The notes beneath the pieces are model-generated. The model did not search any database. It had not been told where the DNA came from and saw nothing but the letters and a program-made list of their open reading frames with translations. The translations under genes and the position numbers were made by a program. This document shows positions 13,990-55,912 of a DNA stretch of 64,000 nt, piece by piece. Position 1 is the stretch's first letter; each line of letters begins with the position of its first letter. The stretch comes from Psammoneis japonica (taxonomy: Eukaryota): assembly GCA_008632985.1 (NCBI GenBank), contig QPGO01000135.1, forward strand, positions 62,001-126,000, given 5' to 3'.

Positions 13990-14033
13990 GCTACAACAAT
14001 TAAATCCCAATCCTAATGACACACACTTGGTTT

Positions 14034-15085: not shown

Positions 15086-15160
15086 GATGAAGATGATTGA
15101 GCTGCTGGCAGCACACGTCAGAAAAATATGGGAAAATCGAAACTTCAGAATGGACCTTAC

Positions 15161-15223
15161 AAAAATCCTGGCGCGGCCATCAGAAATCCTGGCGCGGCTC
15201 CCCAAAATTCTGGCGCGACTGGC
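15161..15223. repeat. Three 21-bp subterminal repeats upstream of the Harbinger accessory gene
   Basis: aaat(c/t)ctggcgcg core at 21-bp period. Confidence 0.75.
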
Positions 15224-16997: not shown

Positions 16998-17229
16998 TGC
17001 AACACACAGCCACTTGTGAGAGCCAATGCATCACGGCAACGTGTTGCAGTTTAAATGTCACAAAGGTCATGACAAGGGTGACCTTTTGTCTGCATGCATG
17101 CTGCACCATGAATTCATGGCAGAGTGGTTCATTGTGCAACCATCAGGCAGAAGGCCAGGGGTTCGAAACCCTGAGTGGGAGTTGTCTGCAGCAACGTTGA
17201 TCACTGTCGAACGCGCAAAACTCTGCACA
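16998..17229 (+). mobile_element. Truncated TRIM (5' LTR plus tRNA-like segment)
   Basis: Matches 45848-46080 and sits at the same site in copia B integrase. Confidence 0.85.
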
Positions 17230-17343
17230 AAACAAAACCAAACATCTGTGTTTAAGGTGCTGCTGCGCTCCCGCCCCGCAACTCCGGCAACAAGCTAACC
17301 CACACCCCCAGTGCACCAACAGCGCGGCAGGGGCATGTGGCGA

Positions 17344-18360: not shown

Positions 18361-19803
18361 GGCGCATGAAGAGTGTCACCTGCACAGTGACCCTGATGCT
18401 GTCCTGCCAGCCAATCTGCTCTTACACTCAGCCGTGCCGCCAAGGGCAGGGAGTCAACGGGCAGTGTGTCATCTTGATGTCCCTTGACCCAATGGACCGA
18501 GATGTCCGTGCCGCACTAACAGGGAGACAACTCAAATGTCTGCCTCATCCTGGATGATTCCGACTGGCCGCCCAAATCCTGTTGATCACACAGTTGCTTT
18601 GCTGGCATTGCTGAGCACATGGGCCACCAAATGACGTTCAAGATTCTTTCTGATGACACTCAGAATGTTCTCTGCCATTCCAATGTGCACTCTGCCTGTG
18701 AGATCCGTCTGCTCCAAGCCTGCGTCTTGATCCTCCTGATGAGAAATCTGCTGCACCCATCATTAAATCCCGGCATGACTCCAAGGATTTGCCGGATTCG
18801 CCAGATGGGGAGGCAATCAGGATGCCCAAAATGCCGGTCTTTGACCCCGAGGACATCATCGGACGTGCCTTCCTCATGAAGCCACAAGAGGATGGACAAC
18901 GCCACAGAGCCCACATCATCAAAGCCATTGAGGACCATGACTGGAAAATTGGAGGCAATCTTGAACTGGTCAAGTTCATTTGCTCCACCAACAATGACGA
19001 ATGTGAGGAAGTCCCAGCCTGCAACAATGTCGTGCACCACATCAAGCAAGAAGAGGAGGACACCACCCTCTGGAAGTTCCAGTGCATCGCATCACACGAA
19101 GGACCATTGCCACCCCATGATCCCTCCTGAAAAGGCTCAAGCCACAACGTCATGCTTGAATGGGAGAGTGGGGAGATCACATCCAAACCCCTTGCCGTCA
19201 TTGCCAATGATGATCCCATCAACAAGCCAAGTTGCGCTCCTTTTGAAATGCGCCACGATGCAAGTGTGGGTGTGAAGTGCCGCAGGACTGCAAGCATGCC
19301 TTGGCCCTCGATGAGCGCAACGGCAGCTGCAAGTGGGGAGGTGCAACGGACCTCGAGATGACTCAGCTTGATGAGCATGAGTTCTTCCATGACTGCAGAC
19401 ATTGCAAAGATTCCAGCACTCCGCTGGGACACAAGAAGATCTGGGTGCATCTTGTCTGCGATGTCAAACATGATGGACAGCACAAAGCAAGGCTTGTTGC
19501 TGATGGACACCTCACAGACGTGCCCGTCGACAGTGTCTGTTCCAGAGCAGTGTCTCTTCGCGGCCTGCGAATGATGATCTTCCTGGCCGAACTCAACAAA
19601 CTGGAGACTTGGGCCACCAACAATGGGAGTGCCTCTCTTGAAGCTGCGACCAAGGAGAAACTGTGCATTGCAGCAGGCCCTGAATTCGGCGAGCTGGAAG
19701 GACACATCCTTGTCATCCACAAGGCCTTGTGCCGACTCTGCAGCTCTGGCCTCAGATGGCATGAACGCTTTGCCGATTGCTTGCATGCTGAAGGCTTCTT
19801 CCC

Positions 19804-20198
19804 GACGCGTTCCAGCCCTAGGTGGGAGCTCGTAGCACTGACGTGTGACACAAATAATTTTTATCATCCGTCGTATGTTTCGCACGTAGATTTCTACGTG
19901 TGACATTTAAAAAAATTGTCCAGACTCGCTGTTTTGCGAAGCCCCAGACGTTTTACATAATGAATTTATAGAAACAACAATGCGCCAGTTACATTCTTCA
20001 ATGTCTGAAGAATGTAACTGGCCAAGTAAAAAATGATGTACTTCAATCATGGGCGAGTTTGTGCATTCGCAAAATTGCCTCATTTTCTGTTGGCGATCAT
20101 TGACATTTTAATTGCCGAATAATTTTACTACGGAGCTTGCACGTAGAAGTCTACGGGCCCAATGTCACACGGATTCCCACCTGCGTCTGGAACGCGTC
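19804..20198. mobile_element. MITE, TpA-retaining copy
   Basis: TIR GACGCGTTCCAG...CTGGAACGCGTC; 4-bp TSD TCCC; inserted in copia RT (empty site at 20331-20350). Confidence 0.93.
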
Positions 20199-20602
20199 TC
20201 CCGTGCAAGCCAAACCCAAATGGTTCATTTGCAACGTAGGATGAGCAAGAGGTGGCGCGCCATCCGACCCAGATGCACAAGCTTCTGGGCCTTGTGCAGA
20301 CTCCGCAGCTCTGGCCTCAGATGGCATGAAGGCTTCTTCCCATGCAAAGCCAAACCCAACATCTGGCTGCACAGGAATGGTCCGTTTGCAACGTGGGATG
20401 AGCAAGAGGTGGCGCACCATCCGACCAAGATGCGCGAGCTTCTGCAGCTGTCGGGCTTCTCAGAATTGTCCATCAGCCCGCTGGGTTGGCCACCTCAGCC
20501 AATTTTCATGCAAGGGCTCCAACGAACACTGGCAATTGCAGCGATTGCCCATGTGATCACTGTTTTGTTTCATGCCAAGGCACCATCGCACCCCGCTGTC
20601 CC

Positions 20603-24449: not shown

Positions 24450-24880
24450 TGCCCTGTGCATGTGCCAGGCGCTGAAAAAGAAGATGTGTTACGACTTTGT
24501 CGTTGTGAAAATTATGAGCTGGTTTAGAGCAGAGAAAATGGGATCGTGTGAACAGGGAATCTTGCCAAATCCCTGTTGTTCGCATTTGGATCGCATCAAA
24601 TCGATCGTGCATTCGCATCATGGATCGTGCGAATCAAGCCATCACGCGCCATGCACGAGTGATGTCATCGTGTGGAATCACGCTACCATCGTGGGCCAGA
24701 CGACGGGCTAGTGTGCTTCACACGGATGCTCTCTTAGCATCCTTCTGGAATTGCCTGAGACCTAGAGCCACGCCCTCCTGTGGTCGTGCTTCCCAGGTGC
24801 GTGTCAACAATGCTACGTTGCCACGTGCAAGAGGCTCACACACGGTCTCACCGTGTTGTCCAGCAGCGAGGCACACTGCA
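24450..24880 (-). repeat. 3' LTR of gypsy
   Basis: Direct repeat of 29315-29724. Confidence 0.93.
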
Positions 24881-24919
24881 CACTCCCCCATGATCAGGGC
24901 CGTTAAGTGACAGGATGTC

Positions 24920-27900
24920 TCACTGGTGATGGGGTACAATCTGCCGTAGATTGCACGCATCTGTCAGCGCTCCATTCTGGACATGCAACGTGCCGTTGTC
25001 ACACACACGGACAACTCTGGCGGGTCCTGCACAGCTGTCAGAACCGCACTTAGAGGATTGTTCCTGTTTGACAAGCACCAATTGCCCTGCGGTACATTGA
25101 TGCTCCTTGCGTTTCTGATTTTCACGCTTGTTGTTTAAGTGGATGAGCTTCTGCTTTCTGGTTTCTATGTGCTTCCACTTGGCACGATGGGCAATGGATA
25201 AAACCGCATCGCGTCCGAAGACCAGTTGCATGGGACTTGCACGCGTGGTCACATGTGCTGTAGCTCTAATGGCGAAGGCTGCTGCGGAGAGGATGCCACT
25301 CCATGGGTCATCTTCGTCCAGTTCCACACCCTGTGCTGAAAAGGAATGCACCATGTTACCAAGTGTCTGGTGTGCACGTTCCACTGTGGCATTCACCTGT
25401 GGATTCCGTTTGCTCATGGGTTTCTTCAAAATCCCGTGGTCATTTTTAATCATCTGGCTAAATTCTGCCATAAATTCTGTCCCACGGTCATAAACCACCT
25501 GGGTTGGCCACGGACATCTGCGTGGCCACATTTGTTCCACGACGTTTGCTGCGACGTCTGCGCGTTTCATGGACACTTCTTTAATCTCGAACCACCCGGT
25601 TGCTGGGTCAATCATTGTGACTGCCCACAATTGCAAAGTGTCCTTTCCGCGTCTTTGAATTTTGTGTGGCCCTGTCATGTCTGTGCACAGAGTCTCCCAT
25701 GGAATTATCTCTGCGACCTTTTCTGGCAGCTTCCCATGACGCTGCGTTCGGCGTTTTGTCTTCTGGCATCGATCGCACTCAACGCACGTAGAATGCACCG
25801 TAGACCTCATGCTGGGCCAACAGAAGTGCTGGGCAATGGATGTTTCCGCACGTGTCTCACCTGGATGACACAGTGTCTCGTGGTGCCATTCAGTTAGCGG
25901 AACCTGCAATGACTGTGGTGCTGCGATTTTGTCCTTATGACAGATTAACTGTCGTGATGACCCTCCCCCACGACACGCGCGAATGGAGCAGTCGGACGAG
26001 TCCTTGGCTCGTAAGAGCAGGTGCTTGTCCTTTTGTTGTGCTTTTTGAATGCGCTTGAAGCTAATGGGCAGAGACATCTCATCTTGCGCGTCTGCATTAA
26101 AAGCTTCATGCAAAGGACGACTCAATGGAGTGTCTTTTACATCCGGATTGGCCTCGGAAGGCAAGCTGGGTGTCAGTCGAAGGCGGCTAAGAGCGTCAGC
26201 GACTGGGCCATGGGTGCCCTTAACATGGCGTAATTCGGGACCGCATTCTTCGCATGTCAACCGCCAGCGCATGACGCGCTCGGCATTGAATGCTTTGCAC
26301 GTAAGATTTTTATGATCAGCACATGCAATCACACGATGACCAAGGAGAATCGTTCGAAATTCTTTCAACGTCTCCACAATGGCAAGTGATTCTCTCTCCG
26401 TTGTTGTGTGATTTAATTGCGCACTGTCAAGCTTTCTGCTGTAAAAGGCGACAGGTTCATTGTCTTGGGATGTGACTGCTCCCAATTGATGTTTAGAGGC
26501 ATCGGCGTGCATCTCAAAGGGTTCATTAAAATCAGGATGTGATGACAAAACATCATCCGATGTCACCCGTTTAACGGTTTCGAACGCCTCGTCTTCAACA
26601 GACGTCCACTCCCACTTGACAGTCTCGCTTGCGAGTCGTGTTGGCGGAGCCAAGACTTCAGAGCATCTAATCCACATGTCACAGCAGCAGTTCACCATGC
26701 CAACAAATGAGCGCAGGTCGCGTTTGTTGGTTGGGGTCGCGATTGCTTAATGGCGTTGACTTTGTTGGGTGTTGGTCGCACTCCGTCTCTGTCAACCAGA
26801 CAACCCAAGTGCTCTAATTGGGTTTCACAGAAGTGAGATTTAGCTGAGTTAACTTTTAGTCCTGCTTTCTGGACCCTCAATGAAACTTCTTCAAGTTTGT
26901 TGAGGTGATCTTCACAGGTGCCTTTCGTCATGACGAGAAGGTCATCTAAGTGCGTTCGAACGAACGACAGATCTTCAAACAAGCCTGACATGCGTTCTTG
27001 GAAAATGTCTGGCGAATTGCGTGATCCCATGGGCAATGCCTGCATCTCACACTTGCCCCACGGGAAGATGAGCGTGCAGAGCTTCTTGCTGTCAGCATCC
27101 AATCGGATGTGATGACAGCCCACATTTAGATCCAGCGATGTGGCCCACACAAAGCCTTCGAGCCAAGCAGCATGTCTTGGGTGTGAGGAATCGGATGAGG
27201 CAATCGCTTGATCCGTTTGTTCAGCTCTCTGAAATCATTAATGAAGCGTGCCGTTAAATCCTTCTTCGGTGTGATAAATGATGGAGCTGCCCATTGGGAT
27301 CGGTTGACGCGTTTGAGAACACCGATGCGCACCAGGCGTTCTATTTCTTTACGTAGCGTAGCTTCGTACGCACGAGGCACTTTATACGGACGAGCGTGGC
27401 ATGGTTCTACACCCTCCTTAAGTTGGATATGGTAGGGTTCTCCCTTCCATTCTCCTAACGTCCCATCAAATAAAGACTCATGGCGTTTCAATAGTGCCAA
27501 AAGGTCATTTTGTTGAACTATAGAAAGTTTTATTGCCCCTCGCGTTATGTCCTCGAGGCAGGCCGGCGCGTACTTAGCGTCTAAAATACGCGAAATCCGG
27601 TCGGTTTCCGAAGATAAGGCTTCTGGATCTTGAAGATAGAAGGAGGTTTCTACCGTAGCATCTACGTGCCTCATTGGTACTTCTCCATTGACTAATGGCC
27701 ACTCTATCATCTGTTTAGAGAAGACAATATCAATGCCTTGTGTCTCCAGAATGTCACGTCCAATAATCATATCGTACTTGCCCAACTTTCCGTTGTGTAC
27801 GTGGACGGTATGTTTAAGTTCTCCAGTTTCGGACAATTCTGGTAACCGAAATTTAACGGTGCAGTCGTTAGACGTGCTGAACGAGCCTGCTACCGTAGTC

Positions 27901-28139
27901 CAGTTTGTCTCAGCCGTTGAATGGCTTCGTAGACGTTTACAGTGTCGACTGTCGAGTAGAGCACTGCTGGCGCCACTGTCTAGCAGTGCCTTGATGGTTT
28001 GAGTCTTGCCCTTGCCATGTTTGGCATTCATGGCTGTGAACAAGATTGGAGTGAGATGAGTCTTTTTAACTCGTTTGCGGGATTGGCCTGCAACACGTGT
28101 ACGATGGTAATTCAGTTGTTCATTTGTACATTCATCCAA
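24920..28139 (-). pseudogene. pol: gypsy pol (PR-RT-RNase H-IN), frameshifted
   Basis: ALLDSGAS protease; WAAPSF, DFRELNK, LPMG, VRTHLDDLL RT; HADASK, ERESLAIV, DHKNL RNase H; HPG...C..C, DMTGP, DRGTEF, VERAH integrase. Confidence 0.95.
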
Positions 28140-28175
28140 TGTGTTAAAACCACCTGCATCATGTCGGCCCCCTTC

Positions 28176-29255
28176 TCAGGCGTCCGAATCTTCGGAATCA
28201 CTCAAGTTGAGGTCGCGGAAGTGATTGAGCTCCTCCTCGCGTGCCTTGCGCTTTTTCTGAGCGTTGGCAAAGAACTCCTCGACCTTCGATCCGATGAGAG
28301 TGTCAATGTCTTCCTCATTCCGAGGTTTTGCATTGGGCTTGCTGCCTCCATTGTTGGAATGTCCAGTCTTGACACGTTTCACGTGGTGCTTGAGCTGATG
28401 GCAATCCTCCGTGTGATGTCCACAGTTAGTCCCGTGCAGCATGCACGACTTCTGGGTGTTCCGTTGGGTCGTGATCAACGACTCAGGATTGTCCGTTCTA
28501 CGTCCCCGCTTGCGTGGAACCTCAGCATGTTGGTCCTGGTTACCTTCGGCAAGCTCGACCTGCTCGATGTGCTCGCAGAACTGCATAAATTCGGCGACAG
28601 CATGCGCCAACGGGTCAAAATTCTGCAGTGTCATGAACTTCTGCCATGCGTTCGGCACACCGCACTCGAACATGTCGCATGGTTCATCATCAGGCAATGG
28701 TGCCAGGTGCTTCTCCATCCTCCGTCACGGGTGGAAACTGAGAGACACAGCCGTTAATTTCAACAGCCCTCGCGACGCAGTCACGAGTGGAAACCTCTGC
28801 GGGCTTGCGCATGAAGCGCCTCAGATGACGCTTCTGCAACAGCACCGCCCCATGTGGGAAGATACTTTCCTTTAGCTTCGCGACGCATGCTGCGTGCGCA
28901 GCATTGGTTTGGGGTGCCTGCTTGTCAGCGGCATTGTCAAATGACGTCAGAGCATCGCCCTGCAGCAGGTCACGCACAAGGGCAAATTTCGCTGGCCCAG
29001 TCGTGATGTTTTGTCCTTCGTGCATGCAATCCACGTTGCGCAGAAAGATCAGGAGTGTCTCGCATGTAGCCATGGAAAGGTGCGGAATGCCCATCTCGTG
29101 TGTTGGACCACCCGGATCAGTGGGGTTGTTGCGCAGCTTGAACGTCTGGCACTCGCCCTGCTGCAGCTCTTTCTTCTCCGGCCGTGCGAACGGAATCGGC
29201 GGCTCAACCTGCTTCTTCATGGTCGTTTTAAGATTTGTCGGTCCCACCAACATTT
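28176..29255 (-). pseudogene. gag: gypsy gag, frameshifted near 28720
   Basis: QKRHLRRFMRKP, GVPNAWQ, CMLHGTNCGHHTEDC knuckle-like motif; lies upstream of pol. Confidence 0.8.
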
Positions 29256-29314
29256 CGTAGTTTCGTTTCTGTAGATTTCGTTGCCTCGCACAACATGCGG
29301 GAGCAATGTCACTG

Positions 29315-29724
29315 TGCCCCATGTGTGCACTGGGCGCTGAAAAAGAAGATGTGTTACGACTTTGTCGTTGTGAAAATTATGAGCTAGTTTAGAGTAGAGA
29401 AAATGGGATCATGTGAACAGGGAATCTTGCCAAATCCCTGTTCGTTCGCATTTGGATCGCATCAAATCGATCGTGCATTCGCATTGTGGATCGTGCGAAT
29501 CAAGCCATCACGCGCCATGCACGAGTGATGTCATCGTGTGGAATCACGCTGCCATCGTGGGCCAGACGACGGGCCAGTGTGCTTCACACGGATGCTCTCT
29601 TGGCATCCTTCTGGAATTGCCTGAGACCTAGAGCCACGCCCTCCTGTGGTCGTGCTTCCCAGGTGCGTGTTGACATGGCTCACACACGGTCTCACCGTGT
29701 TGTCCAGCAGCGAGGCATGCTGCA
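29315..29724 (-). repeat. 5' LTR of gypsy
   Basis: Direct repeat of 24450-24880 with a ~20-bp deletion near 29675. Confidence 0.93.
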
Positions 29725-40143: not shown

Positions 40144-41902
40144 AGCAGTTCAAGAATGCCGCCCTTGAAGCCAGCGACGACTCTTCTGTTGTTTCAGACC
40201 TGGCAGCTCCTCTCTGAAGTGTCTTCATTGCTTTGCTGCACTCTCTGTCTGCATCTTTCACAGTGCACTTCATTTCTGCATTTTGTTTCTCTCTTTCAGT
40301 TTTGCAAACATTCGCCAAAGTTCGCCCCGCGCTTGGGCTGAGCTCTGCACTTTGCCCATTTCCCATTTCCCAAATCTTTTTCCCTTCTTAGCTTTGCTTT
40401 CCCTTCAGCCTCACCTTTTGGCCTTTGCCCGCTGTCCACTGCCCAAACCCAGTCAAATTGACGCACAATTTTTTGTTTGGTGGTGTCATGTTTTTTGTCA
40501 GTTTGTCTGTGGGTGTGTCATTTCCATGCTGACCTGACATTGATTTTTGTGCTTGGCAGTGTCATGTTGTCCGTGCTCCCCTTTCCCATTTCGTTTTCCC
40601 CGCTCCCATTTGTCATGTGAGGGGAGGCTTGATCATCTGGGCTGCCCGGTTGTTTCAGCGTTCAAGTGCCAAGCATGGCAGCGGCCATCGAGGCTGGCCA
40701 AATGATGGTCGTCATTGCTGACAGGATTTGAACAAGATTTCAGTTTGTCGCACACAATCATGTGTGCTCTTGGCTCCGGGCACACCGCATGATGCAAATT
40801 GCTTTCCAGCCACATGGCTCACAAGAACAACAACAGTGGCGCCGACATCACGACACCAGTCTTTCGGCTCCTGCAACAGTCTCTGCACGGAGACTCACCC
40901 GCCAATCAGACAGCAGTGAGGAGTCGCTGTTTTCTTCCACCCAGTCATCTTCAATTTCTGTCAGATCAACAGCCTTGCTCATTCTTGTCCACTGAGCATT
41001 CATCATTGTCATCGAGAAATTTTTTGATGGCGCACACAGCTGGCAGTGGAAGCACACATCTGTCTTCTTCGTTGCTGGATGCTGGATTAAATCCACACAT
41101 TTGGTTTTGTCCAACACCTCCCATCATTGCATGTGTTTGTTCAATGGATGTTTGTTTGGTCAGGAATTCCCGAATTCTCAGAAATCTGAGATTCTGGATT
41201 CTCCGCAGTGGATTCTGCCCTGGTTGGCAGACAGACCAATCCATCCGCTCATGCTCATGTGCGCACGACATGAGCTCTTGACTCTGGCCCTGCTTCGCAC
41301 ATGCCAAGTCCACTGCCTCGAATCTGTGCCAGATTGCTGGTCTTCTGCAGTCCTGCAATTTCCGCGAAGACAACTGCGAGAGGAAGCAATTCGTGATTGC
41401 AGCCTGTGTTGGGGTGAGGGTGCAGTTCCCGTGTTTGTTCGTCCCTCCAAAGTGCCAAATTTGGCCGGCCTGATCGGGTCATCCAACCGACACAAAATGA
41501 GAACGGTTCAGGGGTCTTGTCCACCTCCAGCTGGCTTGTCAGAAGGGGTTTTTAACCCGTTGCTCCACTCTCAAGCAACCCAAAGCATCGCCAGCTGCGG
41601 GTTCGGATGTGCCGGCACAACTCTGCACACCGGATGGGAAGCTTGGCACTCAACTGCGAACGGGATGTCATGGCCCGGCAGCTTCTGACTTGCAAGATGG
41701 TTCAAGACTTCAAGTCAAGACTCAAGCCAAGTTTCAAGTTGTTTCAAGCTCACCTTCCGACTCTTGCCAGTCCCGACACTCACCCAGTTGCAACATGGTT
41801 CTGACCAGACAGCAACAAATTGATGGCCTTGAGCACATCCTTGGTGCTGTTCTGAATCAAGCCGCAGACAGTCCACTGCGCTCTGCTCTCAACATTGACG
41901 GA

Positions 41903-42259
41903 GATGGGTTCCAGCCCCAGGTGGGACTCCATGTGACATTGGGCCCGCAGAATTCTACGTGCGAGCTCCGCAGCAAATTTACACTGTGATGAAAATGCAC
42001 ATGATCACCAACAGAAAAAGAGGCAATTTTATGAACGCATCTCCTCCTTCATGCTTGGAGCACATCATTGACATTTTGCCCAGGCACATTCTTCAGACAT
42101 TCAAGAATGCACCCAGATCATTTTTATTCTCATGAGTGCGAAACAATTTTGTAGAACACAACATGCAGAAATGCACGTGCACGACATGCAACGCGATCCA
42201 AAAAACTGTTGATGTCACAGTGCAGCAGTGCGAGGTCCCACCCAGAGCTGGAGCACATC
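41903..42259. mobile_element. MITE
   Basis: TIR family; TSD CGGA. Confidence 0.88.
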
Positions 42260-42465
42260 CGGAACTGACTCGCATCAGGACCTCTTTGCTTTTACTCCGA
42301 TGCAGCTGGATGCCCTTGTTTGCATCAACGGCACCAATCAAATGCCCTTGCCACGTGGCTGCAAAGCACAGACAGCTGCGCTGATTGGCCTGCACACGGC
42401 AAAAGTGTGCGGCAGCACCAATGTCAGCAACAACCCCCAATTGTTCACACACGAGGAGTTCACCG

Positions 42466-42906
42466 TGACCCATGCAGGAACAGGGCATGAGTGCTTGGGC
42501 AGATGTTTGGTGTGTTGTGAAAATTATGAGACTGTTTCACTTAGAGCACAAATGCGCAATGGTGTTCTTTTTTTGAAACCAGAATTCTTGTTGCACAACA
42601 AGTCATTGGAAAGACTTGAGCACAAGTCTTTTGCAACATTTGTTGATGTTGACGCGGAGCCAATCCAAAGGCTCACACTCGGTGCTGTGTGACTCCTACG
42701 CAGTCCCTTCGTGCAAGGCAAGTCTCTTGCACGATGGCCAGTCGTGCCGGTCTCGGTTGCATGGAACTCCTGTAGCCTGTCGCAGGTCTCGTGCCAGGAG
42801 TCGCATTGTCTTGTCACGTGCTTCTGCGGGATCAGCGTCACCACGGACAGCCTGCAGACGCAGGAAAGTGGCATCATCAGCGGCCACGGTGGGGATGCCC
42901 ACTGCA
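42466..42906. mobile_element. Solo LTR of the 33320-36795 family
   Basis: TG...CA; homologous to 33320-33771; 4-bp TSD ACCG/ACTG. Confidence 0.8.
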
Positions 42907-45167
42907 ACTGACTTTCATGTCAGTCCTGAGCATGCAGCGTCCCTCTCCATGGGCACAGCACCTTCTGCCCCCATTCTTGGCTTGTTGCCACCCAAACCAC
43001 ATGACCCCATGCGTGACTTGAAACAAGGCATCAAACGTGACCCACTCACCTTCGCGCTTCTCAAGTCTGACAAACAGTGGCACACGTGGCACACCTCCAT
43101 CATTGCACAGGCCCGCTCCCAGGAAGTTGACTGCACTCTCGATCTGAAGCACAAGCCCTCTGCAGCTGAGGACAAGGCCCTGTTCGACGAACAACAGAAG
43201 CACATGTTCATTGTGTTCGAATGCATCTTGCAGAGTGACAAAGGCAAGGCACTCTTTCGTGAACATGTTGGCTCCTCTGATGCTCAAGCGGTGTGTCATG
43301 ACCAGTCCAAGTGCGCCCTTGCTTCCACTCACGCATCCCTGGAGTCCTCAACCCTTCTTGTGCACCTCACCACTGCTCACCTCGGTGATGGCACCTGGAA
43401 AGGATCCACTCATGCCTTCACACTTCACTGGCACAACCAGCTTCACAAGCACAAAGCTCTCATCCTGGGCACCGACCATTTCTTGGCTGGCCAGAAACAT
43501 GTCATGCTTGAGAACTCCGTTCACCCTGTCAAAGAACTGCACTTGGCAGAGAAAATCAGGCCAATCAGAAGGGCCTTTCTTGTGAGCAGTGCCATGGACT
43601 CCTGCTTTCTGCCGTGGCACAGCATGACAGCACGTTTGCCCCCAAGATGGCTCCTTGTGCTCCGTGCCGTGTGCACGTGCCATCTGCGAACATGACCTGG
43701 CCCCCCCGACGACCCTGATGACAATGCATTCTTTGACATCAACAGTGATGTTGACGTCATCCAAGCTCATGCTGTGCAAACTCGTGGCAACTCCCTCGCC
43801 CGGGAACAATGGCGTCGCATTTCGCTGGACCATCAGCACATTTGGGACACCTTGCCCCAGCCCACCAAGGCCATCATTCTTGACTCGCACACCGCCCACA
43901 CGGGCAACTGCCATAACTTGACGGTGGTCAACCTGCACGACCTCCGCATTGGCAGCGATGGCGATGTCAACTTGTCTGCCAACACTCACGATCTTGCATC
44001 ATGAGCCTTCACACAATCCAATGCTGCAGCCAATGCCAACCCCATTCTGGCTCATCTCACCAGGCGCAAGCCTCTGCCACCCGGCAACTTGCGACGTCTC
44101 CTTGCACCTGAACGGCCTCCTTCCGCCCGTTCTGGAGAGAAACCCTCCGGATCTGTGCCTTCCGTCTGCTCCGACGCGAAGCCCGACGACACTGACATTG
44201 AGATCAATGGTCATGAACACGATCATGTCAAAAACCACAATGTCGTCTGCTCTGCCTCGACCCACAAATCCACTCGCAAAGGCGCCCACGTGAATCGCCT
44301 GTGATGATGTTCATGTCATTGCTTGCACTGGTCGCCAGGTTGACGTCCAAGGTGTTGACAATCACCAGCTGCTCGACACTCCAATTGTCGCTGCTGGTGG
44401 TGTCATCCACACACAATGTGGCCCCGTCATCACCACTCTTCACTGGCACGCCTGCACTGGAAAGGGCAAGACCATGCATTCTTGCGGTCAACTTCTGTGG
44501 CACAAACATGACGTCAACAATCAGCCCATCAAGGTCCCCAATGGTCTGCAGTGCATCACCGCATTGATGGATGTGTCATCCCCATTGACATCAAAGGCGG
44601 CCTTCCACACATTGCCATGCTCCCACACACTGATGCCAAATGGGACACCTTGCCACATGTCATCCTCACAGGTGATGACACTTGGGACCCATCTACCATT
44701 GACCACCAGCTCGCCGACAATGAGATGTGGCATGATGCCGCATCTGACCTCCAGGCCGACCCGACTGCCAACCTCTTTGACAAGTTCGGCAACCATCGCC
44801 ACTGTCATGTCGTCAACAATGCCATGCTTGTGGACTCCGCCCATGATGACCACCTGCTCCCAATGTCCGATTTCTTCTGCAAATGCCATGAGCACGAGAT
44901 CAATCAAAAGGATCCCAACTTTGAGTCTCTGCGCCCTTGTTTTGGCTTTCTTCTGAAGGACACTGTCCACCACACTTTTGATTGCACGACACACAGCATG
45001 CACTTGAAAAAGGTGCACAAGTCGCCCAACCCGGCTCTCAATGTCCACCAACGCAACGAACCCGTTGCCACTGACACAGTGCACTCAGACTCCCCAGCTG
45101 TTGACTCGAGCTGCACCAGTGCCCAGCTCTTTGTTGGCACCAAATCCCTTGTCACGGACGTGAACAG

Positions 45168-45564
45168 GACGCGCTCCAGCTCCAGGTGGGACCTCGTGCT
45201 GCTGCACTGTGACATCAACAATTTTTTTGATCGCGTCGCATGTCGCGCACGTGCATTTCTACGTGTCACATTCTACGAAATTGTTTCATGCTCCCTGTTT
45301 TGCAAAGCCAAAGGCTTTCTATTTTTAACATTTGTGAGAATGAAAATGCACTGGGCACATTCTTTGATGTCTGAAGAACACACCCGGGCAAACTGTCAAT
45401 GATGTGCTCCAAGCATGGAGGAGGAGATGCGTCAGCAAAATTGCCTCTTTTTCTGTTGGCGATCATTTGCATTTTCATTGCAGCACAAATTTGCTACAGA
45501 GCTCACACGTGCAATTTTGTGGGCCCAACGTCACACGGAATCCCACCTGGGACTGGAACCTGTT
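45168..45564. mobile_element. MITE
   Basis: TIR family; diverged TSD ACAG/ATGG; empty site at about 16710. Confidence 0.85.
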
Positions 45565-45847
45565 ATGGAGCCAAGACCGACAAGAATTTGTCAACACACT
45601 TGAAGACAACATTCGCAATCGTGGTGCCCTGCCCAAGCTCATCAGCAACCGTGCTCAAGTTGAGATCAGCAACAAGGTCCTTGGCATCCTCCGTGCCCTC
45701 TTCATCCCCAGTTGGCAGAGCAAGCCTCATCAACAGCACCAGAAGTTTGCTGGACATTGCTGCCAAACTGTGAAGACCATGGCCAACACTGCCATGGATC
45801 GCTTCGGGTCTCCGGCTTGCACCTGGCCACTCGCCCTGATGTGCATG

Positions 45848-46293
45848 TGCAACACACAGCCACTTGTGAGAGCCAATGCATCACAGTGACGTGTTGCAGT
45901 TTAAATGTCACAAAGGTCATGACAAGGGTGACCTTTTGTCTGCATGCATGCTGCGCCATGAATTCATGGCGGTGCAGTTCATTGCGCCACCACAAGGCAG
46001 AAGGCCAGGGGTTCGAAACCCTGAGTGGGAGTTGTCTGCAGCAACGTTGATCACTGTCGAACGTGTGAAACTCTACACAAGTTCTGCACGTTCCTTTGCA
46101 TGCACCCACACTGTTCCATCAAAAACACGTTCAGTGTCTTGTCAATTAGTGAGAGCCGCAAGGACGCGTGACACATGGGGAGGAGTGCAACACACAGCTG
46201 CTTGTAAGAGCCAATGCATCACGGCGACGTGTTGCAGTTTAAATGTCACAAAGGTCGTGACAAAAACAACCTTTTGTCTGTGTGCATGCTGCA
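45848..46293 (+). mobile_element. TRIM (mini LTR element) with internal tRNA-like sequence
   Basis: 108-bp LTRs 45848-45955 and 46186-46293; PPT ggggaggag; 4-bp TSD CATG. Confidence 0.92.
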
Positions 46294-47018
46294 CATGTGC
46301 TTTGTGCTCAGCCACACGGCATCTGCCAAGCTCCACTGGCATGCCCCCACTGAAGTGCTGCCCGGCTCTGCTCCCGACATCAGCCCGCTCCTTCATTTTC
46401 AATGGTGGGAACCCGCACGCTGTCACCTGGATGACTCCGACTGGCTGCCCGAATCCCGTGAATTGTGTGGTTGCTTTGCTGGCATTGCTGAACACATGGG
46501 CCACCAAATGACGTTTAAGATTCTTTCTGATGACACTCAGAATGTTCTCTGCCATTCTAACGTGTGTTCTGCCCGTGATCCGTCTGCTCCAAACCAGCGT
46601 TTTGATCCTCCTGATGAGAAATCTGCTGCACCCGGCATTAAATCCCGGCACGACTCCAAGGATTTGCCAGATTCACCAGATGGGGAGGCAATCAGGATGC
46701 CCAAAACGCCGTTCTTTGACCCCAAGGACATCATTGGATGTGCCTTCCTCATGAAGCCACAAGAGGATGGACAGTGCCACAGAGCCTGCATCATCAAAGC
46801 CATTGAGATCATGACTGGAAAATTGGAGGCAATCTTGAACTGGTCAAGTTCATTTGCTCCATCGACAATGACGAATGTGAGGAAGTCCCAGCCTGCAACA
46901 ACGTCATGCACCACATCAAGCAAGAAGAGGAGGACACCACCCTCTGGAAGTTCTGATGCATCGCATCACACGAAGGACCATTGCGACCCCATGATCCCTC
47001 CTGGAAAGGCTCAAGCCA

Positions 47019-47296
47019 TGACAGGATTTGAACAGGATTTAGGTGCGCGCGACATGTTGCGCGCTGTTTAGTTTGCCGCACACAGTTTTGTGTGCTCTTT
47101 AGTTCCACGCGTACGCGCGCGATGTGGTTTGCTTTCGAGCCACACGGCTAACAAGAATGATGACAGTGGCCCAATCACACCGACTTGCACGTCTTTTGGC
47201 TCCTGCAACGGTCTCTGAGCGGAGACTCATCTGCTGTTTAGACAGCAGCAAGGAGTCATTGTTTGAATTCTTGCCATTTGCCTTCAATTTCTGTCA
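47019..47296 (+). repeat. 5' LTR of copia C
   Basis: Direct repeat of 53518-53795. Confidence 0.95.
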
Positions 47297-48231
47297 GATT
47301 GACAGTCTTGCTCATTGTCAACCCATTGAGCAACCGCCATCGTCGTGTTGATTTTCCGATGACACCATTTCAATTCTGCGTGGACCTCCGCACATGTTCT
47401 ACATGCGTTGGCAAGTCCCGTGGCATTCAATGCCAGGCATCGGCAGGAATTTAACGCAACCGTCCAGTCTCCTTGCTGCTGGATGTCTGGATTGATTGTG
47501 CTGCCTTTTTCGCTGAAGACATGCATTCAACGGTTGCATCCAAGTCCACCCTTGATCCTCATCCCTTGACACACCCATTCAACGGTTAACGGTCAAGAAC
47601 CCTGCACATTCAAGGATCTTTGTGGCTGAAGACATGTGCATGTGCACATCTTCACGGCCAAGGACTTGAACCCACTCTTTGGACTGCGGCTTTGCCACCA
47701 CTCTACAAGCACGCTGAGTCTGTTGTGCCTGATCTACCCCGGACTGCTGGTGCTCCACAGTTCTGCCAGGTCCACAAGGATGACTGTGAGAGCAAGCAGC
47801 CGTGATTACAGCCTGCTTTGGGGCGAGGGTGTTTTCCCGCGTTTGTTCGTTCGTCCACAGCGCCTGATGCCTGCATCAACTGGCCAGCCTGATCGGGAAA
47901 TCCAACCGACACAAAACAAGAACGGTTCGGGGGTCTTGTCCACCTCTAGTCAGCTCACCTGCAGGGGTTTACAACCCGCTGCTCTGCTCGCAAGCAACCC
48001 AAAGCGCCACCAGCTGCGGGTTCGGACGTGCCGGCACAACTCTGCGGACCGGATGGGAAGTTTAGCACTTGACAACGAACGGGATGCCACAGCCTGGCGA
48101 CTTCTGATTTTAAGATAGTTCAAGACCTCAAGTCAAGTCTGTTTCAAGTCAAGTCCATTTTCACTCAAGTTTCAAGTCTGCCTCCACATCCCAACAAGAA
48201 TCGCTTGCCCTGACACCGTCATTTGTCTACC

Positions 48232-51200
48232 ATGGTTCTTGCTCGTCAGCAACAAACCGATGGTTTCGAGCACGTTGTTGGAACCGTGCTTGCCCAAGAT
48301 GCTGGAAGCCCTCTTCGTTTGGCTTTGACCCATGATGGCACGGACTCGCACCAAGAACTGTTTTTTCACGTTCATGCCTTCTCAAATCGACTCGCTCGAG
48401 TACGACAACGGCACCAATGTGATCCCATTGCCCCGAGGTTATAAGAACATGTTAGCAGCTCTAGTTAGTCTGCACATTGTCAAAGCACACAAAGGCCTTG
48501 ATGTTGCCAATGACTCCTCATTGTTCACGCATGATGAGTTCCTTGCCTGCCGCCTCAGTCCCGACTGCATGTCTTCTGTGTCTGTCGGCAGCTCACCTCT
48601 TGCACCTCCGCATGTCACCAACCCAACCAAGGCACGCGACCCAGTGCGAGATTTCAAGTGAGGCATCAAGCGTGATCCCACTGCTTTCACGGCTCTCAAA
48701 TCTGACAAGCAGTGGCACACTTGGCACACCTCACTTGTGGCACAAGCCCGTGCCCAAGACGTCGAGTGCATTCTAGACTCATCGTACAAACTGACCAGCC
48801 CCGAAGACAAACTGCTCTTTGCTGAACAGCAAAAGTGCATGTTCGCCGTCTTCGAACGCATCCTTCTCACTGACAAGGGCAAAGCTTTCATTCGCGAAAA
48901 TGTGGGGTCTTCTGATGCCCAGACCATCTGCCGCGCCTTGTCTGAGTGTGCACTCGCCTCCACCAGTGCATCTGTCGAGTCCTCCACCTTGCTCACGCAC
49001 CTCACCACCGCATGCCTTGGTGATGGCACTTGGAAAGGTCCGACCCACGGGTTCATCCTTCATTGGCAGGATCAGTTGCGCAAGCACGAGGCACTCATCC
49101 TGGCCAGTGACCACTTCTCTGAAGGACAGAAGCGTGTCATGCTCGAGAATGCCGCACATCCTGTTGAGGAACTCCGCGCTGTCAAGAAACAAGCGGATCA
49201 ACATCGCACGCAGAGTGGCAAGAGCCTCACATGCAATCAACATTGTGGCTTGCTCCTCTCTGCGGCAGCTCAATGCGACAGCACGTTTCAACCCAAGACG
49301 ACCCCTCCAGCTCCTTGCTGTGCCACACACGCACACGACGTCTGCTCCGAGGAACCATCCGACGATGTGTTCTATGACATCGATGGCGACATTGACATCC
49401 TTCAGGCCAACGCTGCCTGCACCCGCGGTCCCAGCCTCACCGGCGACCAATGGAAACGTCTCCCTCCCAACCACCAACGGATTTGGGATTCGTTGCCCCA
49501 TTCCTCCAAGGCGATCATCCTTGAGCATTCTCGTCCGCCTCCTCACAACCCACGAGCCGGCAACTGGCACGAGTCCATTGTGGTCAACCTTCACGACCGA
49601 CGACTTGGGAGTGATGGTGATGTCAACTTGTCCGCCACGACTCTTGCTGACTCTGGTGATCCCACCCCGACTGGGGATGCCACTTCAGACAATCCCATTC
49701 TGGCGCATCTCACCAAGCGCAGGCCACTGCCACCCGGTGATCTGCAATGCCCATTGTCCCCTAACCAAGCCCCCAAAGCTGGTCGACCGGGCCCATCCGC
49801 CGCTCCCTCTGCCTCGCCCACTCCTCCAGACGACATGGAACTTGATGGCCGCACTTGCCGCTGCGTCAACAACCACAATGTCATTTGTTCTGCCTCCGCT
49901 CATCGCTCCACACGCACTGGTGCTCTAGTCGATCGTGGAGCCAACGGCGGCATTGCTGGCGACGACGTTCGCGTCATTGCACGCACCTCTTGCCAAGTCG
50001 ACGTTCAGGGCATTGACGACCATCAATTGGTGGACATCCCCATTGTCACCGCTGGTGCGGTCATAGAGACACAGCGTGGTCCCGTCATTGCCATCCTCCA
50101 TCAGCACGCACACACGGGAAAGGGCAAGACCATTCATTCCTGTGGCCAGCTCGAATGGTGCAAACACGATGTCAACGATCGCTCTGTCAAGGTGCCCAAC
50201 GGCTTGCAGTGTGTCGCCACACCTGATGGCCATGTCATCCCAATTGACATCAAGGGTGGCTTGCCTTGTGTTGCCATGCGGCCCTGCACTGACGATGAAT
50301 GGGACACCCTGCCACATGTCATCCTCACCGGCGATGACACATGGGACCCTTCCGTCCTCGATCACTCTATCACTGACGACGACCAGTGGTACGACGCGAT
50401 CTCGGACCCACAGGACGATCCCACTGCCAACCCATTTGACGAGTGCGGCAACTACCGTCACCGTGTCGTTGTCAACAAGGCCATCATGTCCGCCTCCTTG
50501 TCTGCCGATCACGCGTCCGCCCTCGATGACCACCTCATTCCGAATGAAGACGTCTTCTACGAGTGTCATCTACATGCGATTGACCCCAAGGACGGCGACG
50601 TTCCGCCTCCGGAGCGCAATGTGCAGCCCACGGACCCCCCCTGCGAGTCTCTTCGGCCCTGCTTTGGTTTCCAACCTGCGACACGGTTGTCGTACTTTCG
50701 ACTGCACCACGCAATGCGCCCGCATGCCCGCCGGTATGCACCTTAAGAAGGCCTACAAATCACCCAACCCCGCCCTTAATGTGCACTGCTGCAACGAGCC
50801 TGTCGCCACTGACACCGTTTGTGCCGACACCCCGGCCATTGACTCTGGTTGCACCAGTGCCCAACTGTTTGTTGGTGCCAAGTCTACTGTCACTGATGTC
50901 TACGGCACCAAAACGGACAAAGAGTTTGTCAACACACTCGAGGATCAGATCCGTGAGTGTGGTGCTCCATCCAAACTCATTGGCAACCGTGCTCAAGTTG
51001 AGATCAGCAACAAGGTGCTCGGGATTCTATGAGCCCTCTTTGTCTCCAGCTGGCAAAGCGAGCCTCACCAGCAACACCAAAACTTTGCCGAACGTCGATG
51101 CCAGACCGTGAAGTGCATGGCAAACACCGTCATGGACCGTTTCGGTTTGCCTGCCCACACATGGCTGCTGGCGCTCATGTGCGTGTGCTTCATGCTCAAC

Positions 51201-53496
51201 CATGCAGCATCCCCACATCTCCACTGGCGCATGCCCCTCGAGACTCTCACTGGCTCCACCCCAGACATCAGCCCATTGCTTCACTTTCACTGGTGGGAAC
51301 CCGTGTGCTTCCACCTCGATGACTCCGATTGGCCGTCCGAATCCCGTGAGTTGCGTGGACACTTTGTTGGGATTGCTGAGCAAGTCGGCCACCAGATGAC
51401 CTTTAAGATTCTTTCTGACGACACTCAGAAGATCCTCTGCCGGTCCAATGTACGTTCCGCTGCTGCCGATCCTTCCGTTCGCAACCTGCATCTTGATCCT
51501 CCTGATGGGGAGCCACCTGAACCCATCATCAAATCTCGCCATGACGACAACCCCGTCGATTCACCTGATGGGGAGATCAGGACACCCAAGATGCCAGTTT
51601 TTGATCCGCAAGACATCATCGGACGCACCTTCCTCATGCAGCCACAAGAGGACGGACAACGCCACAGAGCTCGCATCGTCAAGGCAATCGAAGATCACGA
51701 CTGGAAAGTGAATGGCAACCCCAAGCTCACTAAGTTCATCTGCTCTGTCAACAATGACGAATGCGAGGAAGTCCTTGCCTGCACCTCGCTGCAAGTGTGG
51801 ATGCGAAGTTCCCCGGAACTACAAACACGCCATGTCACCAGACAAATGCAACGGCAACCGCAAATGGGGAGATGCAACTAATCTCGAGATGGACCAACTC
51901 GATGAATGCGAAGTCTTTCATGACTGCGGGCCCTCTGAGTCTTCCACTCCTCCTGCGGGACACAAGAAGATCCGAGTGCACCTGGTGTGCGACGTGAAAC
52001 ACGACGGCCGCCACAAGGCACGACTTGTAGCCGATGGACACCTCACAGACGCACCTGTTGACAGTGTCCACTCCGGAGCAGTCTCCCTTTGTGGCCTTCG
52101 GCTGATGATTTTCCTGGCCAAACTCAATGAGTTGGAGACATGGGCCACCGACATTGGCAATGCCCACCTTGAAGCCACCACCAAGGAGAAGCTGTACATT
52201 GCAGCTGGACCCGAATTTGGCAAACTCGAAGGCCACATTCTTGTCATCCACAAGGCCCTGTGTGGACTGCGCAGCTCCGGCCTCCACTGGCATGAGCGCT
52301 TCGCCAACTGCCTGCGAGCTGAAGGTTTCTTCCCCTGCCGTGCCAAACCCGACATTTGGATGTGCAGGAACGGCGACCACTGCGAATGTGTTGCCGTTTG
52401 TGTGGATGACCTCGCCATTGCCATGAAGGACCCTCAATCTTTCGTCGATGCTCTCACGGAAAAGTGCAAGTTTAAGCTCAAGGGTGCGGGACCGATTGAG
52501 TTCCATCTAGGCTGCGACTTTTCCCGGGATCCTGACAGCACCTTGTGCCTGTCTCCGCGCAAGTGCATCGAACGCATGGTTGACAGCTGCACACGACTGT
52601 TTGGAGAGAAACCTGCCACCAACGCCCTGTCCCCTCTGGAGAAGGGTGACCACCCCGAACTGGACACTTCCGAACTGCTGGGGCCCGATGGCATTCAACA
52701 GTTCCAGTCTCTTGTTGGTTCCCTCCAATGGGCAGTGTCCTTTGGTCAAATTGACGTTGCCACGGCCGTCATGTCACTCTCTAGCTTCCGAGCTGTGCCC
52801 CGTCAAGGCCACTTGGATCATGCCAAATGTGTCTGTGGGCACCTCTCCAAGATGCGACACGGCTCTCTCCGCGTTCGCACGGAAGAACCCAACTGTTTGG
52901 ATCTCCCTGCACCGGCCCATGAATGGATGCATTCCGTGTGCGGCAAAGCAGAGGAGATGATCCCAAAGGACGCTCCACCGCCCCTTGGCAAGTTTGTCAC
53001 TGCCACCCACTACGTCCATGCAAACTTGCATCATTGCATGCTCACCGGACGCTCTGTCATGGGAATGCTCCACTTCCTCAACAAATTCCCGGCTGATTGG
53101 TTCTCTAAGAAGCAAGCCACCGTGGAGACTGCGACCTGCGGGTCTGAATTTGTTGCCGCAAGGACTTGTGTCGAACAGATTGTTGACCTGTGCATCACCC
53201 TGCGCCACCTTGGCGTCCCGATCCGTGACATTGGTTGCATGTTTGGTGACAACAAGTTGGTTGTAGACAGTGCCACCATCCCGCACTCCAAGTTACACAA
53301 GCGACACACCGCACTGTCGTTCCACCGTGTGTGTGAGGCAATTGCCTCTGGTTGCCTTGAGCTCCACTTCATCGAAGGCTCCCGCAACCCTGCTGACATT
53401 CTCAGCAACATTGGGGTCACTCCCAAGTGTGGGACCTTCTCCGCCCCCTCATGTTCTGGAACTTCATTCCATCCAAAGTCGAATCTGTTTCTGTGA
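48232..53496 (+). pseudogene. pol: gag-pol of copia C (multiple stops and frameshifts)
   Basis: LVDRGANGG protease; VATDT, SEPHQQHQNFAERRC integrase; HKARLVADG, DIGNAHL, VAVCVDDL RT; TCGSEF, GDNK, NPADILS RNase H. Confidence 0.93.
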
Positions 53497-53517
53497 CTCC
53501 TCAAGCAAACTGGGGAG

Positions 53518-53795
53518 TGACAGGATTTGAGCAGGATTTAGGTGCGCACGACACGTCGCGCGCTGTTTAGTTTGCCGCGCACAGTTTTGTGTGCTCTTTA
53601 GTTCCGCGCGTGCATGCGCGATGTAGTTTGCTTTCAAGCCACATGGCTCACAAGAATGACAACAGTGGCCCCATTGTGCCAACTTGCACGTCTTTTGGCT
53701 CCTGCAACGGTCTCTGAGCGGAGACTCATCTGCTGTTTAGACAGCAGCAAGGAGTTGTTGTTTGAATTCTTGCCATTTGCCTTCAATTTCTGTCA
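53518..53795 (+). repeat. 3' LTR of copia C
   Basis: Direct repeat of 47019-47296, preceded by the PPT. Confidence 0.95.
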
Positions 53796-55912
53796 AGCTG
53801 CAATGTCATGCTTGAACAGGAGATTGGGGAGATCACATCCAAACCCCTTGCCGTCATCACCAAGGACAATCCCGTCACATGTGCCATCTGCCCACATTGG
53901 CATGGCCTCCTTGAAACCGAAGGATGGAGGCATTTTTGCAAGATGGCCCCATGTCAGAAGAAGATGTTCCGCATGGCCAACCAAGCCAAGTTGCGCTCCT
54001 TTCGCACTGCGCCACGATGCAAGTGCAGGTGTGAAGTGCCACGGGACTGGAAGCATGCCTTGGCCCTCGATGAGCGCAACGGCAGCTGCAATTGGGGAGA
54101 TGCAACGGACCTCAAGATGACTCAGCTTGATGAGCACGAGGTCTTCCACGACTGCGGACATTGCAAAGACTCCAGTTCCCCACTGCGACACAAGAAGATC
54201 TGGGTGCATCTTGTCTGTGACGTCAAACATGATGGACGGCACAAAGCAAGGCTTGTTGCCGATGGACACCTCACAGACGTGCCCGTCAACAGTGTCTGTT
54301 CCGGAGCAGTGTCTCTTTGCGGCCTGTGAATGATGATCTTCCTGGCTGAACTCAACAAACTGGAGACTTGGGCCACCAACATTGGGAACACCTGTCTTGA
54401 AGCTGCGGCCAAGGAGAAATTGTGCATTGCAGCAGGCCCTGAATCTGGCAAGCTGGAAGGACACATCCTTGTCATCCACAAGGCCTTGTGCAGACTCCAC
54501 AGCTCTGGCCTCAGATGGCATGAACGATTTGCCGATTGCTTGCGTGCTGAAGGCTTCTTCCCATGCAAAGCCAAACCCGACATCTGGCTGTGCAGGAATG
54601 GTCCATTTGCAATGTGGGATGAGCAAGAGGTGGCATGCCATCCAACCCAGATGCACGAGCTTCTGCAGCTGTTGGGCTTCTCAGAATTGTCCGTCAGCCC
54701 GCTGGGTTGGCCACCTCAGCAAATTTTTGTGCAAGGGCTCCAACGAACACTGGCAATTGCAGCAACTGCCCATGTGATCACTGTTTTGTTTCATGCCAAG
54801 GCACCATTGCACCATGCTGTCCCAGTTGACCCAGGACAACAGAGCATCAACGCCGCTGTTCCCACTCCGGCTGCACTCACATTGGTGCCCACACCACTTG
54901 ACTCAGCAACAATGTTGTTTCTTCCATCGGATTGTGTGCTTGCCAGCTGCACCTTGTACAAAGCACATGTGCAACTTTGCTTGCTGCCATGCAATGAACC
55001 ATGGTCAGTGATCTTTTGGATTTTTGGTCTCCTGGCAGCATGCCATCAATGCAGGTGACATCAAAATCCTTGCATGTCTGGATGGCATGACAAGTGTTGC
55101 CCTCATGGGCTGCTTCTAAAAAATTGTTTTTGTGGAAGAGGCAGCACGTGTGGTGACAGCAAAGTTCTCTGTGGCGGTGGGGTTGCCCCGGTTGATTGTG
55201 GCAGATGTGGGCTCACTCTTTGCGGGCATCTTCGCCCAGCTGTTCGAAATCATCCAAGTTCCAGTGTTGCCAGTGCTGCAAGAAAATCATCGGGTGGCAT
55301 GCAATGAGCAGCTCCACTGACATTTAAACAAGGTGGTGTGCGTCAATGTGGCCAACACATCGTCAATGGCATTGTGGAAGCAAGCAGTGCATTTCAACTT
55401 GTGTGCCTGGGGTGCATCACCAACCCACATGACGGATCTGCCAGGATCAAATTGCGAGTGAGTTGAGGCTCAATTGTTGGTGCTGACAGATTGAGTCTTC
55501 TTGTGCCGCACTGCAGCCTCCATCAAGCATCTTCATTGTTTTGGCAGATGCCTCAGTCTGCGTCAAATGCTGCGGTCCTCATCATGACATTTAATTTCCC
55601 GCAAGGTTGAAAAAAGTGGGCCGTCATGGTCGCTGAAAGCCGCGGCCATTTTGGCTGTTTGTTGGTTCACATTTGCTCTGTTTGTTTTGCTCAAAAGCCA
55701 TTGATGTGATCATTTTTTAACAAAATGTCAACAATGTTGAACAAGGCACAAAACACTCATTTTTTGTGAAAAACGGGCATGAGCGTGCCACCCAAAAAGT
55801 CTGGAACAAGTCCGGTGGCATGGACACAAGATTTCTCTGAATGCATTCAGAGCTTGCAGAGGCACCGCTCAAGCGATGGTCAGGGTTCCTCCCCCAAGGC
55901 AGTTGGAAGAAA

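Follow-up and report, generated by a model that had tools for sequence, protein, structure and literature searches.

Why should the two copies of a five-base target-site duplication, identical when a transposon integrates, now differ at two adjacent positions that fall within a single dinucleotide? The question is raised by copia C, a Ty1/copia long terminal repeat (LTR) element that occupies positions 47019-53795 (forward strand) of a 64,000-nucleotide stretch of Psammoneis japonica DNA (assembly GCA_008632985.1, contig QPGO01000135.1, positions 62,001 to 126,000), hereafter the window, and that is nested in an older copia element, host copia copy 2. A first-pass annotation of the letters proposed that the target had been a tyrosine codon of the host polyprotein, that the duplication had therefore read AGCTA on both sides, and that one copy had gone from TA to CA and the other from TA to TG through a lesion occurring on either DNA strand. 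Here we present a computational analysis of the scar, of its paralogous empty site and of the other transposons in the window. A process that works on duplex DNA, in either strand, and converts A:T to G:C at TpA is real and strong throughout the window, and we lean slightly towards the view that the TA at this site was still intact when copia C inserted.

Results

The insertion and its scar

All parts of copia C lie on the forward strand and can be delimited to the base. The left copy of the duplication, AGCCA (47014..47018), abuts the LTR start TGACAGG and has the same letters as the empty site at 19140-19144. LTR-LTR comparison defines a 5' LTR (47019..47296, TG..CA) and a 3' LTR (53518..53795, immediately preceded by the purine run GGGGAG) of 278 nucleotides (nt) each, with ends TGACAG...CTGTCA and 91.7% identity; the 23 substitutions between them comprise 13 A/G, 8 C/T and 2 A/C. 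The internal region (47297..53517) holds a decayed gag-pol that is colinear with a relative of 1881 amino acids (aa), P0006, residues 63-1853 of which map to 48413-53406 by tblastn, and it includes an RVT_2 reverse transcriptase (RT; Pfam E 1.6e-20). After the right copy, AGCTG (53796..53800), comes CAATGTCATGCTTGAA, and this sequence aligns to the empty-site paralogue from 19145 on.

Homology between the LTRs ends at 53795, and homology to the host restarts with the next five bases, three of them the same, and continues into CAATGTCATGCTTGAA. Because the switch falls exactly at 53795/53796, the five bases after the 3' LTR are a genuine duplicate and not a chance resemblance. A nested Ty1/copia insertion has here left a 5-bp target-site duplication of the ordinary kind, and the flanks given by the first-pass annotation are confirmed to the base. 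Three of the five bases are identical in the two copies, and the two mismatches are adjacent, CA versus TG in one dinucleotide. Whatever the starting letters, the copies must have diverged in genomic DNA after integration. Since the divergence is necessarily post-integration, editing of copia C RNA or cDNA cannot account for the mismatch, and the earlier exclusion of such editing at this site holds regardless of the ancestral letters.

The host element is present twice. Host copia copy 1 (10174..20287, forward strand) is a duplicate of the copy 2 insertion that carries other nested inserts and lacks copia C. Host copia copy 2, also on the forward strand, consists of a left part (40719..47018), with the 5' LTR from 40719, gag-pol and other nested inserts, and a truncated right part (53796..54665) with the RT start. 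The paralogous empty site in copy 1 reads GGCTCA AGCCA CAACGTCATGCTTGAATGG, with a single AGCCA at 19140..19144 on the forward strand, and its frame gives GSS-H-NVMLEW. The frame and empty site proposed earlier, GSS-x-NVMLEW, are thus present, with x as histidine: codon x is CAC (19143-19145), the same CA as in the left scar copy, a point that the earlier argument left unused.

Copia C itself has an internal deletion near 51779-51783, where about 100 codons found in relatives and in other copies of the family are missing. The deleted segment includes the motif KGS-Y-NV..EWE, which is homologous to copia C's own target in the host. In read contigs, other family copies diverge from the window at the loose ends 51779/51783.

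The ancestral codon at the target

The ancestral state of codon x was sought with a query of 176 aa around the empty site in host copy 1, its one stop replaced by X, against 1.84 billion representative proteins. Matches at E <= 0.001 numbered 1491 proteins, and realignment of the best 150 yielded 155 stretches, 135 of which cover x. The residue at x in these 135 is Y in 91, W in 20, H in 8, F in 7, I in 4, C in 3 and N and V in one each; none of the 135 has arginine. The first-pass annotation had expected tyrosine here and had named arginine (CGC) in relatives as the outcome that would count against it; with the proposed alignment made, this expectation holds. Judged by these relatives, TAC (tyrosine) is the deep ancestral codon at x. 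The best named relative at the target region is from the diatom Cylindrotheca closterium. Relatives with histidine or cysteine at x (P0014, P0030, P0066) are low in tyrosine (1.5-2.4%) and rich in histidine and cysteine, and environmental contigs may carry copies decayed as in this window.

TpA erasure across the window

The dinucleotide composition of the window is strongly skewed. Observed/expected (o/e) ratios are 0.13 for TA, 1.65 for CA, 1.59 for TG and 0.63 for CG, and TA o/e ranges from 0.02 to 0.55 over all 32 bins of 2 kb. The same loss is seen at conserved codons, defined as those with the same residue in at least 70% of at least three long relatives. The 34 conserved tyrosine codons of copia C now read TGY (17), CAY (8), TAC (4), phenylalanine (3) or tryptophan (2), and no tyrosine survives in either host copy, where copy 2 has 8 cysteine and 4 histidine at 17 such codons and copy 1 has 8 cysteine and 6 histidine at 22. 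Under the same test tryptophan is kept at 35/37 codons, histidine at 47/52 and arginine, scored as the CG dinucleotide, at 52/98; the retention of tyrosine versus arginine codons indicates that TA loss is more complete than CpG loss. Overall, the products at tyrosine codons are TG in 39 cases versus CA in 18. Erasure of TpA, by change of A:T to G:C on either strand, is real and strong here.

The TG:CA ratio at decayed tyrosine codons is 19:8 in copia C and 11:6 in host copy 1, and the open reading frame (ORF) of a Harbinger transposon at 12770-13960, described below, has CA 5 and TG 2. Strand or transcription may lie behind this difference in bias between the copia elements and Harbinger, though the counts are small. 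The 490 surviving TpA sites are non-random in context: the commonest contexts are TTAA, CTAC/GTAG and TTAG/CTAA, and the rarest are ATAT (6) and ATAC/GTAT (13). At a looser threshold, all five copia C tyrosine codons that are still TAC lie in the context cTAc, the same as x. These contexts hint at a flanking-base preference of the mutator. A context rule that would fix the outcome as TG or CA was considered and dropped, for neighbouring bases do not separate the two outcomes, and of the homologous tyrosine codons in host and copia C 7 are concordant and 4 discordant, as independence predicts.

Cleaner witnesses in the gypsy and Harbinger elements

Two further transposons serve as controls. The first is a gypsy-type LTR element on the reverse strand (24463..29724; Pfam RT_RNaseH, Integrase_H2C2, rve). 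Differences within its LTR pair are TA/TG at 3 sites, TA/CA at 2, CA/TG at 3 and CG/CA at 1, with 25 CpGs intact in both LTRs, and 11/12 transition differences lie at TA-type sites. Because its CpGs are untouched, the CA/TG pairs of this element can hardly be CG-derived. With TA o/e of 0.40 and CG o/e of 0.93, the gypsy element looks as though it was caught half-way through TpA erasure; its right-hand LTR also has a 22-nt deletion.

The second is a PIF/Harbinger-type DNA transposon (12563..15507, forward strand; Pfam DDE_Tnp_4) nested in host copy 1, an element with no RNA stage. Comparison with 82 relatives gave 10 conserved tyrosine codons, now CAY (5), TGY (2), TAC (2) and CCG (1), while in the same element arginine is kept at 16/19 control codons, histidine at 4/4, glutamine at 6/6 and tryptophan at 4/5. 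The gypsy LTR pair and the Harbinger transposon together show that the change from TA to TG or CA acts in this window after integration, on DNA and in both directions, and they show this better than the scar does. ADAR-like RNA editing fixed by retrotransposition is out as a general explanation: TG and CA both arise, TA sites differ between the two LTRs of a single element, and a DNA transposon is hit.

The Harbinger element has terminal inverted repeats GGGYYGCTCC and a matching 3-base overlap at its target, and the gypsy scar is probably GCATG on both sides. The comparison with reciprocal empty sites also took in the inserts at 41821-43005 and 45163-45566, and no further mismatched pair came from any of these loci.

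Both host copies go back to one insertion

How far the empty site can speak for the state at insertion depends on the relation between the host copies. Copies 1 and 2 share the 5' junction ...GTCGTCATTGC|TGACAGG (10173/10174 and 40718/40719) within the same older repeat, uninterrupted copies of which read CATTGC|AGCCT at 21731 and 31645. Both end at the same point of pol, and they are 88-93% identical to each other. From the common junction and the common 3' truncation, we conclude that the host element inserted once and was later copied as DNA, and that its two copies are not independent insertions. A segment of about 10 kb was thus duplicated when it had already decayed, each copy later gaining different nested inserts.

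The decay products agree with this order of events. At 16 of 17 conserved tyrosine codons both host copies have the same product, the exception being 16992 (TGC) versus 46292 (CAC); this comparison leaves out a junction codon and the three rows TTT/TTT, TCT/TGT and TTT/TGC, the last of which adjoins a deletion, and one of the 16 concordant codons, 19128/47002, may have been tryptophan in this family. By our own reckoning such concordance has a probability of about 3e-4 under independent decay. Transversions number 2 in 278 in the copia C LTR pair versus 75 in 5737 in the host pair, by which copia C would be roughly half as old as the host duplication.

Ancestry of CA/TG pairs

Because CpG decay and TpA erasure both yield TG and CA, a CA/TG pair can come from either; third copies were used as witnesses. 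Between the host copies, CA or TG is common to both at about 1000 sites, and 56 sites are CA/TG pairs. For 38 of these an outgroup is available: it has CG at 15, TA at 1, only CA or TG at 18, and another state at 4, and decay of the outgroup itself can cover the 18. The TA witness is at pair 16590/45039. At another pair, 10226 (CA) and 40771 (TG), both copia C LTRs read TTTAG. The discordant tyrosine codon 16992/46292 together with these two pairs indicates that some host TAs outlasted the host duplication. Within the copia C LTR pair there are 10 CG/TG or CG/CA differences versus 12 shared CpGs, and one CA/TG pair between these LTRs has CG in the LTR of host copy 2.

A homogeneous two-state model predicts about 37 CA/TG pairs between the host copies versus 56 seen, and about 149 versus 333 window-wide. 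We do not read this excess as proof of TA ancestry: pooling of ages and uneven methylation also inflate it.

Read data

Contigs from one sample in four runs were placed on 46500-54300 at 90% likeness; the assembly may itself have been built from this run. In these contigs the copia C family is high-copy. Among the best-supported 40 of 418 differences, 18 are places where the window has TG or CA and the reads have CG, and at two the window keeps TA where other copies have TG. None of these 40 lies at 47014-47018 or 53796-53800, so that they speak neither for nor against the letters of the scar. One contig joint (side 21) connects 47016 with 53956; it was considered as a possible empty allele and rejected, as the letters between are not given.

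Discussion

The state of the site at insertion

The account that we somewhat favour has TA intact at insertion, with AGCTA on both sides. The variable scar dinucleotide descends from the family-conserved TAC tyrosine codon of the older host element, and this TA, in the relatively resistant context cTAc, would have been among the few host TAs still alive when copia C landed; the survival of this particular TA until then is itself a supposition. After insertion, the TpA-erasing process would have taken the left copy to CA and the right copy to TG, and the paralogue at the empty site would independently have become CA. The responsible enzyme might be an adenine deaminase with a 5'-T preference, as has been proposed in print for the same signature in another alga.

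Several results weigh against this account. Plain parsimony, given that the empty site CAC equals the left copy, favours CA at insertion, with two changes versus three. The 16/17 concordance and the one shared insertion imply that most host TAs were lost before the duplication, hence before copia C landed. Since the LTR pair of copia C is about half as diverged as the host pair, a surviving TA needed to persist through a further interval before insertion. Witnesses to TA are also scarce, for at CA/TG mixed sites with a third copy the window-wide count is 46 with CG, 1 with TA and 54 with neither. Two-step changes between CA and TG do occur, at two conserved codons that were never TA or CG: a glutamine reads TGG at 16040 versus CAA/CAG, and a tryptophan (TGG in 6/6 long relatives) is CAG in host copy 2 at 53817-53819, compared with 19161-19163, a swap from TG to CA. 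Finally, any odds put on the state at insertion are rough, being drawn from small counts under an assumption of constant rates, and their ranges overlap.

It is possible, though less likely, that the site was already CA at insertion, so that AGCCA flanked the element left and right. Neither the left copy nor the paralogue would then have changed, which is the simplest reading of CA at both places, and the right copy alone would later have gone from CA to TG by two hits, either CA>TA (an ordinary C>T) followed by a fast TA>TG, or CA>CG (A>G) with TG then arising through decay of the CpG. This fits a decay that largely preceded the host duplication, as 16/17 tyrosine products and the insertion site itself are common to the host copies, and it can appeal to the swaps at the conserved glutamine and tryptophan, the latter only 21 nt from the right scar. 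In all, 5/140 copy-sites at conserved histidine, glutamine, tryptophan and cysteine codons have a swapped dinucleotide, and none of the 140 has an intermediate. Its cost is the need for two hits in one copy. Swaps that lack CG or TA ancestry amount to at most about 12 among the roughly 1000 sites where both host copies have the same CA or TG, well below 1% per copy, and two-step CA<->TG changes look rare overall; moreover, some host TAs demonstrably survived the duplication.

CpG decay, which the first-pass annotation had put down as the formal alternative, is indeed very unlikely at this site. It would start from AGCCG, with CG>CA on the left and CG>TG on the right through deamination of methylated cytosine on opposite strands. 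As a blind prior drawn from the window-wide witness counts it would be the better guess: the process is active in these elements (CG o/e 0.63, and the 10 CG-type LTR differences versus 12 shared CpGs in copia C), mixed CA/TG sites with a third copy are mostly CG-derived (46 versus 1 window-wide, 15 versus 1 between the host copies), and one CA/TG pair of the copia C LTRs provides an example. Against it, arginine is at x in 0/135 relatives and tyrosine in 91, and the empty site reads CAC. An extra slow step, from a decayed tyrosine CA to CG, would be needed first, and then CG would have to decay three times separately, including once in the paralogue.

That the mismatch is no mutation of the scar is highly improbable. 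It would then reflect a mistake of assembly or consensus in a high-copy repeat, conversion by another gene copy of the host family, or an imprecise duplication at integration. Both families are multi-copy in one read set and contigs of many copies pile up here, but each of the two differences is a transition of the very kind that prevails in the window, and the LTR ends and the host homology are sharply bounded.

The original proposal of AGCTA with opposite changes in the two copies thus stands in its deep ancestry, tyrosine encoded by TAC. Given CAC at the empty site and the shared decay of 16/17 codons, it is only about half likely that this scar records a both-strand loss of TA after integration, and the claim can do without it, since the gypsy and Harbinger elements are better evidence. 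The lesion is post-integration as had been claimed, but its assignment to either strand was drawn from an ancestral state that is unproven at the scar.

Comparison with known systems

The closest match to the TpA-specific change is found in Bigelowiella natans. In mutation-accumulation lines of this alga, 231/302 new mutations are reported to fall in two integrated viral regions, and 230/231 of these are A>G or T>C, all stated to be at TpA (Mettrop et al., bioRxiv 10.64898/2026.01.13.699255). The same preprint describes coding sequences low in TpA as enriched in reverse transcriptase and DDE endonuclease domains, and proposes an ADAT2-like deaminase for the hypermutation (bioRxiv 10.64898/2026.01.13.699255). 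As described there, the two cases are alike in that only TpA is struck, giving TpG or CpA according to strand, at the level of DNA and in inserted foreign DNA, and in that the long-term footprint is TpA depletion with enrichment of CpA+TpG. The window fits the hallmark of change confined to TpA, with 11/12 gypsy transitions at such sites and tyrosine codons turned to TGY/CAY while tryptophan, histidine, glutamine and phenylalanine codons are kept. The differences are that the Bigelowiella process, by that report, was seen live, in the single-copy inserts of giant viruses and virophages that a chlorarachniophyte carries, with mild depletion (Rho TpA 0.45), whereas here it is read from transposon fossils, the loss is much nearer to total (TA o/e 0.13), and it is a diatom that supplies the element's best named relative. 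A literature search found no paper on TpA erasure in diatoms.

Fungal repeat-induced point mutation (RIP) prefers CpA-to-TpA. Its chemistry is opposite to what is seen here, for RIP makes TpA from CpA, whereas in the window TpA is destroyed and CpA and TpG accumulate; TA o/e of 0.13 with CA at 1.65 and TG at 1.59 rules fungal RIP out for the window. The likeness to RIP of Neurospora and other ascomycetes is that inserted or repeated sequences are killed by dense transitions, specific to a dinucleotide and falling on both strands of duplex DNA. RIP is named in the Bigelowiella preprint and in a paper on diatom DNA methyltransferases (PMC9998398). The latter also describes DNMT4, a RID-related diatom enzyme, giving its function as unknown (PMC9998398).

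CpG methylation-deamination decay resembles the process in also yielding TG and CA, and it is active in copia C and the host copies, but it gives no account of the loss of tyrosine codons or of a gypsy pair with 25 intact CpGs. Ordinary divergence of target-site duplications in old LTR retrotransposons would likewise have a 5-bp copia scar drifting like its LTRs; here, however, both differences fall in one dinucleotide of the hypermutable type and not at random positions.

Other features of the window

Thirteen long ORFs were scanned. Pfam domains were found in seven: in six they are transposon-type, and the seventh ORF, which lies within the Harbinger insert (14231-15253, on the opposite strand), has a DUF6818 domain. 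In the remaining six there were none. An element of about 400 nt with inverted ends GACGCG..CCAG / CTGG..CGCGTC is found at 19804-20199, 20603-20994 and 45163-45566, and reversed at 41907-42260 and 57700-58096. It is present once in each host copy, at different places, and looks like a miniature DNA transposon.

Conclusions

A diverged insertion scar is in itself routine. The value of this one is as a small witness for a TpA-specific process that has a single published description, in a 2026 preprint, and its testimony is weak, since it does not settle which letters were there at insertion; better ones, the gypsy LTR pair with its CpGs untouched and the DNA transposon, lie in the same window. 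The finding adds little beyond the process already described. It does bear on how such elements are to be read: with paralogues that were duplicated after decay, an "empty site" is no guide to what the active element read, nor is a family consensus a guide to the letters at insertion, and LTR-divergence dating in this genome overestimates ages unless TA- and CG-type sites are excluded. What the scar could mean for the biology of this alga is, in our estimate, evenly poised: the mutator may have struck opposite strands of host DNA beside a fresh insertion, in which case it would mark a chromosomal domain or spread into the flanks rather than read the sequence of the element, and a second, unrelated algal lineage would be one in which nearly all transposon TpA has been erased.

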